Assembly (NCBI GenBank): GCA_016840085.1 | Contig: JAEOTA010000081.1 | Coordinates: 128,001 to 192,000, forward strand | DNA length: 64,000 bases | From: Promethearchaeota archaeon | GTDB taxonomy: Archaea > Asgardarchaeota > Lokiarchaeia > Sigyniarchaeales > SOKP01 | Direction: 5' to 3' | Shown: positions 57,018 to 64,000 of the stretch, piece after piece | Numbering within the stretch: position 1 is the stretch's first letter | How the letters are laid out: the number at the start of each line of letters is the position of its first letter | The notes under the pieces: model-generated | What the model was told of the DNA's origin: nothing | Seen by the model: the letters and a program-made list of their open reading frames with translations, nothing else | The model's database searches: none | Position numbers and translations under genes: made by a program

Positions 57018-57526
57018 ATGGATAGGCAAAGAATATTAAGAGAAGCCCAAAAATTGCCTTAAAATTTTCATTTTGGATGGTTTCAGGGAACATTGCTCAC
57101 TTATATGGACATATGTATGAAATACCTGAAAAAAAATATGAATTAGTAATAAAATTTGGCGAGAATTTCCCAAATCCCCCTCCTAAACTAGTGGATCATG
57201 ATGAAATAAAGAGAGTATTAGGGGATTTTCAATTAAAAAATATAACAAATTGGGCTCCTGAGAAAGCTGTAATTGATATTATTGAAGAACTTAATATGAA
57301 AATTCAAGAAACATTAGAAATGCCAAAAGAAGAGTTGATTTCACCAAAAACCGAGGAATATATCACTCCTGATTTAAATGCATATCCCCCAGATGCCGAG
57401 TTGAATAAATATCTTACTCCCTCTTATACTGAAAATGAATTTTTCTAAGATAAACCGCCAGAGATTTCTGATCTTCATTTAACTGAAAATTCCATAAATG
57501 AATCAAAAACTATACCACGAGAGTGA
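57018..57526 (+). pseudogene. Degenerate copy of the 5' ~510 nt of the UBC-like/RING gene at 61544
   Basis: MDRQRILREAQK, 1-nt deletion, FSFWMVSGNIAHLYG...EEYITPDLN, TAA in place of TAT at 57446-57448. Similarity ends near 57526. Confidence 0.93.
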
Positions 57527-58063: not shown

Positions 58064-58813
58064 TTGAGTATTATTAAAGGAGTTATTTTAGCGGGAGGAA
58101 CGGGTTCAAGGTTATCTCCTTTAACCAAAGTAACAAACAAACATCTTTTACCCGTTTATAATGAGCCAATGATTTATAAGGTTATTAAAACTCTAACTAA
58201 TTCAGGAATTGGAGATATTACTATTGTATTGGGTGGAGAGAGTGTTGGCGATTTTGTAAGATTACTGGGGGATGGTAGCGAATTTAATGCTAGTTTTAGT
58301 TATGTTTATCAACAAAAAGCGGGAGGTATAGCAGAAGCTTTATATTTAACAAAAAAAATTGTTGAGGGGGACAAAGTGGCTGTTATTTTAGGAGATAATA
58401 TATTCGAAAATACTTTCAAGTCCGAAATTGAGGAATTTGAAAAAACAAACGCATATCAATGTTGCTTATTTTTGAAAGAAGTAAAGGATCCAAAAAGATT
58501 TGGTGTTGCAGAATTAGATGGAAGAAATACTATAAAATCAATTGAGGAAAAACCAAAAAATCCACAAAGTAACTTTGCTGTGACAGGGTTATATATCTAT
58601 GATGAAAATATTTTCAAAGTAATTAATTATATTATCAATAAAATCGGATATTCAAAACGAGGAGAACTAGAAATTACTGATGTTAATAACTACTATATTA
58701 AGAATTACAAAACCAAAGCAGTAAAAGTGGACGGTTTTTGGTCAGATGCTGGAACTTTCGATACTTTAATCAAATCTAGTAATTTTATTCAATCAGTTTT
58801 AAAAAAGGAATAA
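58064..58813 (+). CDS. rmlA: Glucose-1-phosphate thymidylyltransferase (short form)
   Basis: GVILAGGTGSRLSPLT..NKHLLPVY, LGDN, EEKP, RGELEITD, WSDAGT. Confidence 0.93.
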   Translation: MSIIKGVILAGGTGSRLSPLTKVTNKHLLPVYNEPMIYKVIKTLTNSGIGDITIVLGGESVGDFVRLLGDGSEFNASFSYVYQQKAGGIAEALYLTKKIVEGDKVAVILGDNIFENTFKSEIEEFEKTNAYQCCLFLKEVKDPKRFGVAELDGRNTIKSIEEKPKNPQSNFAVTGLYIYDENIFKVINYIINKIGYSKRGELEITDVNNYYIKNYKTKAVKVDGFWSDAGTFDTLIKSSNFIQSVLKKE

Positions 58814-58864
58814 AAGGATACTAACAAATAAAATTATTTAATTAGTTTTAGTGAGAATTTAAAA

Positions 58865-59326
58865 ATGGATTTAATTGAAGGGTTGGCAATAAAAAGTTTA
58901 AAACCAAATTTAGATGAGAGAGGTTATTTGCAGGAGTGTTTTAGATCAGATTGGTCGATATTTAAAAAATTTGGTCAAGCTTATATTACTATAGCATTTC
59001 CTGGTGTTGTTAAAGCATGGCATATGCACAAGATACAAACAGATAATATGGTATGTATATATGGAAATGCAAAGTTAGTTTTATGTGATAATAGAGAAAC
59101 AAGTTCTACTTATAAAAAAGTAACTGAGATCTTTTTTGGGGAAAAAAATCCTCTTTTAGTAAATATACCTCCTAATATTTGGCATGGTTTTAAAGCAATT
59201 GGGGGAAGAAAAATTATTGTCTTAAATTGTCCCACAGAACTCTATAATTATGAAAATCCCGATGAATTTCGATTACCTTATGATAGTGAAGAAATAGATT
59301 ATGATTGGGACATTAAAATGGGATAA
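58865..59326 (+). CDS. rmlC: dTDP-4-dehydrorhamnose 3,5-epimerase
   Basis: DERG, VKAWHMH..QTD, IPPNIWHGF. Confidence 0.9.
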   Translation: MDLIEGLAIKSLKPNLDERGYLQECFRSDWSIFKKFGQAYITIAFPGVVKAWHMHKIQTDNMVCIYGNAKLVLCDNRETSSTYKKVTEIFFGEKNPLLVNIPPNIWHGFKAIGGRKIIVLNCPTELYNYENPDEFRLPYDSEEIDYDWDIKMG

Positions 59327-59346
59327 ACTCTAAAATTATAAAAAAT

Positions 59347-60378
59347 ATGAGTGAAATGAAGAATATCTTAGTTACAGGAGGAATGGGGTTTATCGGAAGT
59401 AATTTCATTAGATTTATTCTTGATTTAAATCAAGATTTCAATATTATTAATGTTGATAAATTAACCTACGCAGGCAATCCTGAAAATTTAAAAGAATTTA
59501 CTGATAAATTTTCAAACTGCTACAGATTTTATAAAAATGATATTTGTGATTTTGATTCGATTGATAAAATTGTTAAAAAAGAAAATATAGAGTATATTAT
59601 TAATTTTGCAGCAGAATCTCATGTAGACCGTTCGATTAATAATTCCACTACTTTTTGTAATACAAATTTTATGGGAACACAGTCCTTATTAAATGCTGCT
59701 AAAATAAATGGTATTAGAAAATTTCTGCAAATTTCTACTGATGAAGTCTATGGATCTTTAGATTTTGAAGACCCTCCTTTTACTGAGCAAACTCCTTTAG
59801 CTCCAAACAGTCCTTATTCTGCAAGTAAAGCTTCAGCTGATCTTTTAGTAAATGCTTATTATAAAACCTTTGGATTACCTGTAAACATAACTCGCTGTTC
59901 TAATAATTATGGACTTTATCAATTTCCTGAAAAATTTATTCCTTTAATGATCACCAATGCCTTAAATAACAAAAAACTCCCTGTTTATGGAAAAGGGATT
60001 AATATTAGAGATTGGATTTACGTAGAAGATCATTGTAAAGCAATTTTAGAAGTTCTATTAAATGGAAGAATTGGAGAAACTTATAATATCGGTGGAGATT
60101 CTGAGATTGCTAATATTGATTTAGTTAAAATAATATTAAAACATTTAAATAAACCTGAATCTCTCATAACTTTTGTAAAGGATCGTCCAGGACATGATTT
60201 ACGGTATGCTATTAATCACGATAAAATTACAAGAGAACTAAATTGGAAACCTAATATAAAATTCGAAAATGGATTAGAAATAACCATTCAATGGTATAAG
60301 CACAACGAAAATTGGTTAAATAACGTGATAAGCAAAGAATATCTTAAATATTATGAGCACCAATATAAAAACAGATAA
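59347..60378 (+). CDS. rmlB: dTDP-glucose 4,6-dehydratase
   Basis: GGMGFIGSNF, DKLTYAGN, AAESHVDRSI, STDEVYG, YSASKA, DRPGHDLRY. Confidence 0.96.
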   Translation: MSEMKNILVTGGMGFIGSNFIRFILDLNQDFNIINVDKLTYAGNPENLKEFTDKFSNCYRFYKNDICDFDSIDKIVKKENIEYIINFAAESHVDRSINNSTTFCNTNFMGTQSLLNAAKINGIRKFLQISTDEVYGSLDFEDPPFTEQTPLAPNSPYSASKASADLLVNAYYKTFGLPVNITRCSNNYGLYQFPEKFIPLMITNALNNKKLPVYGKGINIRDWIYVEDHCKAILEVLLNGRIGETYNIGGDSEIANIDLVKIILKHLNKPESLITFVKDRPGHDLRYAINHDKITRELNWKPNIKFENGLEITIQWYKHNENWLNNVISKEYLKYYEHQYKNR

Positions 60379-61288
60379 AAACCTTAAAAAAGTTCTGATA
60401 GTGGGTGCAAACGGATTTTTAGGCACTAATTTATTAAGATTTAGAACTTCTCATGACTATATAAGTCAAAATCTGGATTTAATTGCTGCGGATCTAGATA
60501 ATTCAAATATTCCCTCTGATGTTCAATTTCATAAGATTAATATTACCAACCATGAACAAACTCGTAAAAAAATCACTAAAATTGCTCCAGATATCGTCAT
60601 TCTGACCGCAGCCATGACAAATGTGGATCAATGCGAAGTTAATAAAAATCTTGCAACTAAAGTAAATGTAGAAGGACCATTTAACATAATTAAGGCATGT
60701 AAAAAGACAGGTTCTAAATTAATTTTTATATCAACAGATTTTATATTTGATGGAATGAAAAAAAGAGGGTATTCTTATAAAGAAACTGACGTTCCAAATC
60801 CTTTAAGTTATTATGCAAAAACTAAATATGAAGCAGAATTGGTTATTTTCAGTTCTGGGATTGAATATTTAATATGTAGAACTGGAGTATTATATGGTTG
60901 GAATGAAAAGAAATTGAATTTTATTACATGGATTTTAAATAACCTAGAACAAAATAAACCAATATCAATCATTACAAATCAGATTAACTCCCCTACTTTT
61001 ATAGCTAATTTAGCTCAAATATTATTAAAATTAGTTGAAAAAGAAGCCAAGGGGATTTATCATACGGTAGGAGATTGCGCTTTAAATAGATATGAAATAG
61101 CTTTAAAATGTGCGGATATTTTTGAATACCATAAAGATCTGATTACTCCAATAGATCATTTAGAACAGAAAGCGATAAGACCTAAAAATGCTAGCTTAGA
61201 TATAACAAAATTAAAAAATTTACTAGGATCAGAACTTAAAATTTTTAATCTTGATGATGGTTTAAAATATATGAGAAATTTTAAGTAA
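60353..61288 (+). CDS. rmlD: dTDP-4-dehydrorhamnose reductase
   Basis: GANGFLG, AAMTNVDQCE, STDFIFDG, PLSYYAKTK, RP. Confidence 0.93.
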   Translation: MSTNIKTDKNLKKVLIVGANGFLGTNLLRFRTSHDYISQNLDLIAADLDNSNIPSDVQFHKINITNHEQTRKKITKIAPDIVILTAAMTNVDQCEVNKNLATKVNVEGPFNIIKACKKTGSKLIFISTDFIFDGMKKRGYSYKETDVPNPLSYYAKTKYEAELVIFSSGIEYLICRTGVLYGWNEKKLNFITWILNNLEQNKPISIITNQINSPTFIANLAQILLKLVEKEAKGIYHTVGDCALNRYEIALKCADIFEYHKDLITPIDHLEQKAIRPKNASLDITKLKNLLGSELKIFNLDDGLKYMRNFK

Positions 61289-61543: not shown

Positions 61544-63196
61544 ATGGATACACAAAGAATATTAAAAGAAGCCCAAAAACTCGCTGCAAGGTTTTCTTTT
61601 TGGATGGTCTCAGGAAATATCACTCACTTATATGGATATATGTATGAGACTGCTGGAAAAAAATATGAATTAGAAATAAAATTTGATGAAAATTTTCCAG
61701 ATTCTCCTCCTCAATTCTTATATCATAATGAAATTAAAGAATTACTTGGCGATTTTCAATTAGAAAAAATATCAAATTGGAGTCCTGAATTCGCCGTAGT
61801 TGAAATTGTTGAAGAACTTAAAATGAAAATTCAAGAGATATTACAATCTCCTAAAGAAGAGTTGATTTCACCAGAAACTGAGGAATATATCACTCCTGAT
61901 TTAAATGTATATCCTCCAGATGTAAAATTTGATGAATATGTTACACCTTCATATTCTGATGATGATTTTTTTTATGAGGAGCCACCAGATACTAGTTCTC
62001 AAGATATTCCAGATTTTAATTCGACTGAAAATTCTAAAATAGAGTCAAAAATTACACCGAAAGAACCAATCTTTAAGGAACCTGAATCGATGAGTATAGC
62101 TCTAAACACTGAATTAGGTTTAATTCAGCAAGAATATGCTTATGACCAAAGAAGTTCGAAAGAAGCAGATATTAATGTGTATATGACAATTACTCTAACA
62201 AAAACATTTAATATTTCAATAGATTTTGTAAATTATCCTGAAAGACCAATAATTGTTTTCCCTGAAGAGATCGGACATCTACTGGGAGATCCTTATAAGA
62301 CTTTAAACTCATTAAAGTCATGGGATTCTAAAGAACCGTTACATATTGTAGACATTTTACATGAATTAGAAAAAAAATTGCATTTCATTAAAGAGATAGA
62401 AACTCAAACTAAAAAAATTTCAGGAGAATATGAATGTGAAACTGTTTCAGATAGTTTAACCAAATTGAAGGTGCATTTATTAACATATGGTTTCAAAGAT
62501 TATACTATGGATATAGATTTAGAGTCATATCCTAAAGCTCCTATTATAAACCTATCTCCTGAATTGCAACAAATTATTCCTCTCCCACTAACAGAACTAA
62601 ACTCCCATAAAAATTGGAGAGAAGAAGAATCCGAGCCCGTTGAAATTGTTAGAGAAATATCTTGGTTAGTTGATAAATTTTCAAGAATTAACTTCGAAAT
62701 TGATTTATTGAAAGACCATTATAAGAATATGAAATACGATACCGAGACTTCAACGTTAAATGTGGATATGAAAGGTAAAATGAAGACTCAAGATCTCACT
62801 TTTGAATTTCAAATTAATTTACCTTTAGAATATCCTATGAAGATGCCTGAAATAAAAGTTGTAAATGAATTTGAATTAGAGGCACATGAAAAAATTAAAG
62901 AAGATTTACACACATCTTTTGATGATTTCTTTGATGAATGGACGCCTTTTAGCTATCTCATTGACTTATTTAATTTGATTTCAAAGAAAATTTTTGAAGT
63001 ATCAGTTGTCTCATGTGTAATATGCCATAAAATAGAATGTCCAAGTTGTACAAAAAAAATTGGTGGTGATGATAGTTGCCATGCGGAGTGTCCTTACTGC
63101 GAAAAACAATATCATCTTCACTGTTGGCAGCAAACTATTAAATCTTTTGGCAAATGTGGCTTTTGCCTTAAAGCTCCTCCTCCAAGTATGATGTAA
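61544..63196 (+). CDS. Four UBC-like (UEV/RWD) repeats plus C-terminal C4HC3 RING-type zinc finger, putative ubiquitin E3 ligase
   Basis: RILKE N-terminal helix. FPDSPP, YPERP, YPKAP and YPMKMP are each followed by a W-containing helix cap. C-terminal CxxC...CxxC-x4-HxxCW...GKCxxC. Confidence 0.75.
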   Translation: MDTQRILKEAQKLAARFSFWMVSGNITHLYGYMYETAGKKYELEIKFDENFPDSPPQFLYHNEIKELLGDFQLEKISNWSPEFAVVEIVEELKMKIQEILQSPKEELISPETEEYITPDLNVYPPDVKFDEYVTPSYSDDDFFYEEPPDTSSQDIPDFNSTENSKIESKITPKEPIFKEPESMSIALNTELGLIQQEYAYDQRSSKEADINVYMTITLTKTFNISIDFVNYPERPIIVFPEEIGHLLGDPYKTLNSLKSWDSKEPLHIVDILHELEKKLHFIKEIETQTKKISGEYECETVSDSLTKLKVHLLTYGFKDYTMDIDLESYPKAPIINLSPELQQIIPLPLTELNSHKNWREEESEPVEIVREISWLVDKFSRINFEIDLLKDHYKNMKYDTETSTLNVDMKGKMKTQDLTFEFQINLPLEYPMKMPEIKVVNEFELEAHEKIKEDLHTSFDDFFDEWTPFSYLIDLFNLISKKIFEVSVVSCVICHKIECPSCTKKIGGDDSCHAECPYCEKQYHLHCWQQTIKSFGKCGFCLKAPPPSMM

Positions 63197-63604
63197 TTGT
63201 AAGATTAAGGAAGTAAATTTTGATTTTTTGCATAAAATTTTTGATAAATAAAAAAGACTTAATTAGAATATTAATTTTAAAAGTTAGTCCTAGAATTCTT
63301 AAAAAATTCGAATATGTCATTCTACTATTAAGAAAAGGTATTTCTAAATGAATTTTTTATAATTTTAAAAATAATTTAAACAATGTTCAGATTTAAAAAT
63401 ATTGCAATCTTTAGAAATAGATTTTGTTCAAGTGTTTTCTGTCCTATTTTGATGCCAAAATACGGAAAGGGACTCTCTATTAAGAGATTTTATATAATTT
63501 TTAAATTGAAAATTTAGTTATGTAAGTTCTTAGATGAATTAATTAAATTTTTTTAATATGCTCCTCTTATTATAAACAATCAAATATGGAACTAGATGAT
63601 TTTC

Positions 63605-64000
63605 ATGGAATTATTAGATAAAAAGTTGCTTCTGAATGAATTAGAAGAAAAAATATTGACTTATTGGGAAGAGAAAGATATTTATTCATTGATAAGAAAG
63701 AAAGAAGAGGGAAAGGAAGTATGGCGCTTTATCGATGGTCCTCCCTACACTACAGGATTAATCCATCTTGGAACTGCATGGAATAAGATTCTTAAAGATT
63801 ATTTAATAAAATACAAAAGAATGAGAGGGTTCAAAGTAACGGATACTCCCGGCTATGATACGCATGGATTACCAATTGAGGTTCAGATGGAAAAAGAACT
63901 GGGTATAACAAATAAACAAGAGATTTACGAATATGGCGTAGATAAATTCATTAAAAATTGTAAAGATTATGCCCAGAAAAATTTGAAAATTATGAATGAT
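63605..64000 (+). CDS. ileS: Isoleucine--tRNA ligase (3'-partial)
   Basis: My translation gives MELLDKK..FIDGPPYTTGLIHLGTAWNKILKD..PGYDTHGLPIEV (HIGH-type motif, archaeal-like). Alternative ATG at 63596. Confidence 0.93.
   Translation, partial: MELLDKKLLLNELEEKILTYWEEKDIYSLIRKKEEGKEVWRFIDGPPYTTGLIHLGTAWNKILKDYLIKYKRMRGFKVTDTPGYDTHGLPIEVQMEKELGITNKQEIYEYGVDKFIKNCKDYAQKNLKIMND

Follow-up and report, generated by a model that had tools for sequence, protein, structure and literature searches.

Dead E2 folds combined with a RING are a design known from the eukaryotic proteins FANCL, Ltn1 and RNF25. First, in FANCL (PDB 7KZP, 3K1L, 3ZQS, 4CCG), an ELF domain that binds ubiquitin and a double RWD (DRWD) domain that binds substrate are followed by a C4HC3 RING that binds the E2, with Ile309 at the E2-contact position (PMC5264512). 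Second, Ltn1/listerin and RNF25 are RWD and RING ligases with one RWD only, and Ltn1 has a long HEAT arm in addition. Third, BRE/BRCC45, which belongs to BRCA1-A and BRISC as their tandem UEV subunit (PDB 6GVW, 6H3C), comprises tandem inactive UBC folds without a RING and serves a JAMM deubiquitinase. In Asgard archaea, a UEV-Vps23 and a stand-alone Helarchaeia RING E3 have been described and E1-E2-RING cascades work in vitro (bioRxiv 10.1101/2023.07.25.550441), and a Uev-like homologue and a single RWD-like sequence have been reported (PMC6601020). These archaeal proteins belong to the same ubiquitin system as the protein presented here; however, in the accessible parts of both sources the E3s are stand-alone RING proteins, the UEV/RWD-like domains occur only singly, and no fusion of tandem UBC domains with a RING appears. 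Nor was such a protein found for Asgard archaea in the searchable, non-subscription literature.

The protein analysed in the present study, 550 amino acids in length, is encoded on a stretch of 64,000 nucleotides (the window) that the preliminary description had correctly attributed to an Asgard archaeon and that belongs to the class Lokiarchaeia. The parts of the gene and its surroundings are as follows.

57018 to 57526, plus strand: degraded, incomplete copy of the 5' end of the gene, covering D1 and the first part of the linker, with a 1-nt deletion near codon 12 and a stop near codon 144
61544 to 63196, plus strand: whole gene, 550 aa, four inactive UBC/RWD-like domains and a C4HC3 RING with a predicted three zincs
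61544 to 61846, plus strand: D1, aa 1-101, extra N-terminal UEV-like domain, nearest to D2 by profile
61847 to 62092, plus strand: linker, aa 102-183, acidic, Pro-rich and disordered in the AlphaFold model
62093 to 62386, plus strand: D2, aa 184-281, inactive UBC-like domain at the position of the FANCL ELF
62387 to 62677, plus strand: D3, aa 282-378, inactive UBC-like domain with continuous helices to D2 and D4
62678 to 63001, plus strand: D4, aa 379-486, RWD/UEV-like domain immediately before the RING
63014 to 63166, plus strand: C4HC3 RING-type finger, aa 491-541, with a predicted central helix at aa 525-535
63038 to 63079, plus strand: inserted zinc loop with C499, C502 and C512, a putative third site completed by H526 (63119-63121)
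63596 to 64000, plus strand: 5' part of ileS, the downstream neighbour, conserved in close relatives

The four tandem repeats read at the outset were confirmed using profile-profile comparison, with profiles built from 120 homologues. D1 and D2 were related with a probability of 96.8% (E 3e-10), D2 and D3 with 97.4% (E 1.5e-11), D1 and D3 with 91.7%, and D1 and D4 with 68% (E 5e-5), D4 being the most divergent of the four. The UBC/RWD fold claimed for all repeats is consistent with the Pfam matches to UQ_con (42.3 bits, cut-off 27) and RWD (28.5 bits, cut-off 22.8), as well as with the AlphaFold models and structure alignments, and the [FY]P..P prolines and four Trp residues named as its signature are invariant across the 120 homologues. 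Both the HPN motif and a Cys at the E2 active-site position are absent from all four repeats, as determined from an alignment with the cognate E2 and from column counts. The repeats had been called Cys-less, which is accurate for the active-site position but not for the domains as a whole, as 94 of 120 close and 34 of 77 diverse relatives retain C298, located in the first D3 strand. This residue lies far from the active-site position, and it was rejected as a catalytic Cys because its position is wrong and it is not invariant. The acidic, Pro-rich linker after repeat 1 was likewise recovered as described; it is disordered in the AlphaFold model and includes a short conserved motif at about aa 113-125, in which P118 and P124 are invariant.

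AlphaFold predicted four helix-meander-helix domains with pLDDT of approximately 80-92. In a second model, covering aa 184-546 and based on a more diverse alignment (pLDDT 88, pTM 0.71), D2, D3 and D4 are joined by continuous helices and the finger helix is present. D1 and D4 superpose on structures of E2s, the Tsg101 UEV and RWD domains with Z of 10-12, D1 aligns with the cognate E2 over its full length (hhalign 83%, E 1e-6) and with E2 structures at Z 12, the RNF25 RWD was aligned at Z 11.0, and D4 together with the RING aligns with the C-terminal RWD-RING of Ltn1 over 153 residues (Z 8.8). The nearest solved multi-domain structures in Foldseek were BRE/BRCC45 (E 9.5e-8), FANCL (1.2e-7) and Ltn1. 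When solved structures were searched by sequence, the single protein query returned nothing better than E 0.3; a diverse profile found E2s, with FANCL absent from the best 60 matches, and the repeats are nearest to ordinary E2s.

The C-terminal C4HC3 finger was also borne out, with eight ligands in C4HC3 order and the predicted central helix. The core RING ligands are C491/C494/C516/C519/H524/C527/C538/C541, which are invariant or nearly so across relatives, and C499/C502/C512/H526 would form the third zinc site. The 120 close homologues, which retain 11 Cys/His unchanged in addition to H495 and H526, cannot separate core from extra ligands. In natural deletion variants, the insert and residue 526 are lost together, and the two sets are therefore separable: His or Cys is found at 526 in 63 of the 64 fingers with the C499-x2-C502...C512 insert and in none of nine fingers, from roughly four unrelated groups, without this segment, counts that overstate the association since kin among the fingers are not independent. 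Throughout these fingers, with or without the insert, C491 and C494 are invariant; H495 is conserved in 44/64 and H513 in 8/64. The suggestion of an additional zinc was therefore sound, but the ligands first chosen for it (C491, C494, H495, C512, H513) were rejected, since C491 and C494 belong to the core and H495 and H513 are not conserved. The "FGxCxxC" ending, offered as a mark of FANCL, is weak evidence, because distant relatives do not have the motif and the finger scores with Prok-RING_1 and not FANCL_C.

Fingers without the insert matched best to Prok-RING_1 (PF14446), followed by RING, PHD and C1 models, and FANCL_C was absent among the Pfam matches listed for them. The Prok-RING_1 scores of insert-less relatives were 33.1 (P0162, over the cut-off of 29.1), 29.0 and 25.5 bits, and the 550-aa protein's own finger scored 10-12 bits because it carries the zinc insert. 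In addition to this insert, the protein differs from Prok-RING_1 in its tandem UBC fusion, which is absent from the Pfam family description. The E2-contact position two residues after the first Cys is Ile493, with Ile, Leu or Val in 54/64 fingers. The usual RING Trp position, four residues after the sixth ligand, is occupied by Thr531, which we take to be the equivalent of FANCL Trp341; Gly539 stands at the position of the Pro after the seventh ligand, and Leu542 at that of the basic linchpin. The E2-binding Trp is found in 0/64 insert-bearing fingers and is present in the two-domain homologues of Jordarchaeia. Many active RINGs also deviate from the canonical E2-binding residues. The PHD-type Trp before the seventh ligand is absent. 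The ligand order, the RING-like Pfam matches and the colinear alignment with FANCL and Ltn1 are consistent with a cross-brace topology for this finger, the structure of which is a prediction. The same three-zinc finger also ends unrelated membrane-anchored proteins (P0173, P0185, P0193, P0200 and others) with a transmembrane helix, a zinc ribbon and, in some, long extracellular repeat regions. These are candidate membrane E3 ligases of Lokiarchaeia, and because of such fusions we regard the finger as a mobile module. A von Willebrand A-like protein (L045:13684-14865), encoded just after an E1-E2-JAMM cluster, carries a pair of RING-like fingers, and the insert pattern recurs in the first of them.

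The search returned 328 homologues; the named ones among the 120 listed all derive from Asgard metagenome bins, and their automatic annotations read hypothetical or "ubiquitin-protein ligase". Among 400 Asgard genomes surveyed for the architecture, the full D2-D4-RING unit was observed in all seven families of the class Lokiarchaeia and in no other family. The four-domain form with D1 and the linker was seen in the order of the source organism. In the class's other families, including Helarchaeota, D1 is absent and proteins of 351-436 aa combine three UBC domains with a RING, and two or three such paralogues are common. D1 might most simply be a later duplicate, because it is closest to D2. 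The Jordarchaeia/Freyarchaeia homologue has two UBC domains and a RING, some records from Freyarchaeia are for a shorter protein of 190 aa, and one paralogue (L057) is without a RING. The number of UBC-like domains varies from 2 to 5, which, together with the close likeness of D2 and D3, points to easy local duplication. The Jordarchaeia protein P0322 (L039:5326-6183, minus strand, and L073), encoded beside E1/E2, has the most FANCL-like RING seen and only two UBC domains. A further family member, P0168 (L037:2549-3850), lies in a bin labelled Thermoplasmata, for which transfer and mis-binning are both possible. Numerous other Asgard proteins also contain one inactive UBC domain of D2/D3 type, in many cases at their C-terminal end (P0182-P0270), with instances in the source genome (G000) at C43:22648-23331, C47:55043-56845 and C89:3927-5207; together they point to a larger unannotated UEV-like family.

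In the source genome and its genus, the gene has ileS and glycan genes as neighbours, with E1/E2 some 135 kb away. The ileS gene is downstream in 24 of 28 informative relatives of the genus, whereas the genes found upstream are of 8 different groups; in the other families that were inspected, ileS does not adjoin the gene. The synteny with ileS that had been pointed out for this gene thus holds within the genus but not beyond it; the neighbourhood is probably positional rather than functional, and a functional link to ileS or rmlACBD was rejected on the same grounds. The rmlACBD cluster (58064-61288) is bracketed by the degraded copy and the intact gene, and this arrangement, with the widely varying upstream neighbour, suggests that the locus is an insertion hotspot. 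Elsewhere in the family, the three-domain orthologues lie directly upstream of ubiquitin E1 in 4/4 genomes from two families (L043, L044, L045, L047), one of them in the arrangement gene-E1-E2-JAMM. P0162 is the first gene of an operon of gene-ubiquitin-E1-E2-JAMM-RING, P0157 overlaps an adjoining JAMM gene, and the Jordarchaeia two-domain homologue lies tail-to-tail with E2-E1. The role in the ubiquitin system assumed in the preliminary description is supported by these operons. The linked members lie on separate branches of a quick tree, in which long branches meet at the insert-less members, the grouping of which is not trusted. Downstream of a Helarchaeales-type paralogue (L034:9216-10283, L048-L052), there is consistently a gene for a conserved protein of some 355 aa with multiple RINGs.

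Ubiquitin, E1, E2 and six JAMM-like genes are encoded elsewhere in the source genome. The sole canonical E2 gene is broken by an insert of 30 nt that contains an in-frame stop (L001:1832-1861, on G000 contig C78 some 75 kb ahead of the window; also L083). The insert forms a full bulge-helix-bulge motif, and its removal restores the reading seen in relatives. The E2 of G181 carries, at the identical position, another 30-nt insert, whose central helix differs but is paired throughout, and the E2 insert is likely a tRNA-type intron in an mRNA. In the ubiquitin E1 gene, too, 30 nt that include a stop are inserted, here within the nucleotide-binding loop (minus strand of G000 contig C78:56825-56854, which is not part of the window); this insert forms a relaxed bulge-helix-bulge with 3/4 central pairs, and its removal restores the motif. 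Since removing the E1 and E2 inserts restores the reading, the ubiquitin cascade is probably intact. The E2 of the genus has no ATG start (L001:1438-1450, L059-L072) and seems to begin with GTG or ATA after a ribosome-binding-like sequence.

Herein, we propose that the protein is probably a single-chain RING-type E3 ubiquitin ligase, whose dead E2 folds would serve to bind substrate or ubiquitin. From its anatomy, its conservation and the linkage of its relatives to E1, E2, ubiquitin and JAMM genes, we infer binding and catalysis as follows. First, the finger would adopt a cross-brace RING fold that includes a third zinc loop, and would dock a ubiquitin-charged E2, most likely of the type encoded beside the gene in the G128 operon. 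Second, the rigid D2-D3-D4 arm would bind substrate, and perhaps ubiquitin, in the manner of the FANCL DRWD and ELF, and might hold the substrate near the E2. Third, D1 on its flexible acidic tether might be a later add-on binding module. Co-folding of the RING with the genus E2 lends weak support (0.40 against 0.02 for the best control, contacts agreeing in at least 93% and partner pLDDT at least 80). The mark was reached by 58 of 80 solved and 2 of 110 mismatched pairs, but in the range up to 0.60 these shrink to 7 solved pairs, alongside both mismatched ones, and the pass may mirror likeness to solved structures, because RING-E2 is a textbook pair. Against the E3 reading we count the missing Trp, Pro and linchpin, the affinity of the finger to Prok-RING_1, PHD and C1 models, the distance of the gene from its own E1/E2, and the mobility of the finger.

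Whether the core of three UBC domains and a RING is a true archaeal FANCL orthologue, passed to eukaryotes from an Asgard ancestor, is a separate matter compatible with E3 function, and we consider such descent doubtful. The three-domain relatives and FANCL share the same order and count of domains and a similar length (351-436 aa compared with 370 modelled FANCL residues), D2-D3-D4-RING of the 550-aa protein is colinear with the ELF, double RWD and C4HC3 RING, and Ile is found at the E2-contact position of this protein and of FANCL. VIA-align placed model residues 5-363 on FANCL 2-367 (7KZP chain L) over 305 residues, but the Z of 9.8 is level with single RWD, E2 and Tsg101 domains (11.1), at an rmsd of 26.7 and TM of about 0.3; the rmsd was 23-27 over the full length and 6.6 over the double RWD, in a comparison in which hinges may flex and one side is predicted. 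For the insert-less P0162, the top language-model neighbour is a FANCL cluster (0.92, 184 shared features), on a par with the protein's own family, and the first non-self match of the 550-aa protein is FANCL (0.89, a lead only), in searches that, like those of structure, respond to shared architecture as well as descent. The RING of the Jordarchaeia homologue has FANCL-like spacing, the Trp and a FANCL_C score of 24.5 bits, but the cut-off (27.3) was reached in 0/400 Asgard genomes. FANCL_d1 and FANCL_d2 were each matched weakly by 1/25 members, compared with 24/25 for RWD and 22/25 for UQ_con, and FANCL_d1, d2, d3 and FANCL_C had no Pfam match in the 550-aa protein. The FANCL-like architecture first proposed therefore stands as a domain order with an extra N-terminal domain, without a match to FANCL-specific sequence models. 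Also against orthology, the repeats are closest to E2s by sequence, D2 and D3 are far more alike than either is to D4, the domain number is variable, and the three-domain form was found only in Lokiarchaeia among the 400 Asgard genomes; the finger gives its best scores with Prok-RING_1 and lacks the E2-binding Trp of FANCL, and the domains appear to pack differently in the model. Eukaryotes, moreover, have other tandem-UBC or RWD and RING proteins (BRE, Ltn1, RNF25, CENP-O, Knl1). Unlike FANCL, the 550-aa protein adds D1, the acidic linker and the third-zinc insert, has shorter spacing between ligands 3-4 and 6-7, and shares approximately 10-12% identity, with no known FANCD2/I-type substrate here. 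Nothing identified as eukaryotic FANCL was present among the returns of the homologue and all-representatives searches, and the evidence gathered gave no sign of a DNA-repair role. We raise only tentatively the idea that the Asgard ancestor might already have had, as an operon-encoded ubiquitin ligase, the subunit that acts as the catalyst in the Fanconi anaemia pathway, and with it the tandem-RWD architecture that kinetochores came to use.

A non-catalytic scaffold of the ubiquitin system resembling BRE/BRCC45, whose tandem UEVs would bind ubiquitin or a JAMM deubiquitinase and whose finger would be PHD-like, is in our judgement unlikely. BRE was the first Foldseek match for both models and is matched weakly by D1 at the sequence level; the best Pfam BRE score, in a relative, was 19.4 bits (cut-off 25.8). 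BRE has no zinc finger, whereas the finger of this family is among its most conserved parts and has the central helix predicted for a RING rather than the Trp of a PHD. Several relatives adjoin JAMM genes, but E1, not JAMM, is the most consistent neighbour; the absence of the canonical E2-activating residues, as well as the paralogue without a RING, would be expected of a scaffold. An E2-variant chain-building cofactor like Mms2/Uev1, in which a dead UBC domain would pair with an active E2 and position the acceptor ubiquitin while the RING served as a built-in activator, is very improbable, as the operon-linked relatives lack D1 and D2-D4 are locked in a tandem arm in the model, despite the whole-length resemblance of D1 to E2s in sequence and structure and the clustering of the gene with E1/E2 in relatives.

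The single-chain E3 is thus the reading that we prefer for this real and conserved family of Lokiarchaeia, apparently undescribed so far and a variant of a known enzyme design. If the protein is a ligase, then the eukaryote-style design of a dead-E2 arm, as in FANCL, Ltn1 and RNF25, exists in archaea too, whether it was inherited or put together in parallel out of the same components. Members linked to operons, 351-421 aa in length, are encoded together with an E1 and an E2 of their own, one of them also with ubiquitin, and their function is therefore testable in vitro; they also provide concrete sequences bearing on the origin of FANCL and of tandem RWDs.
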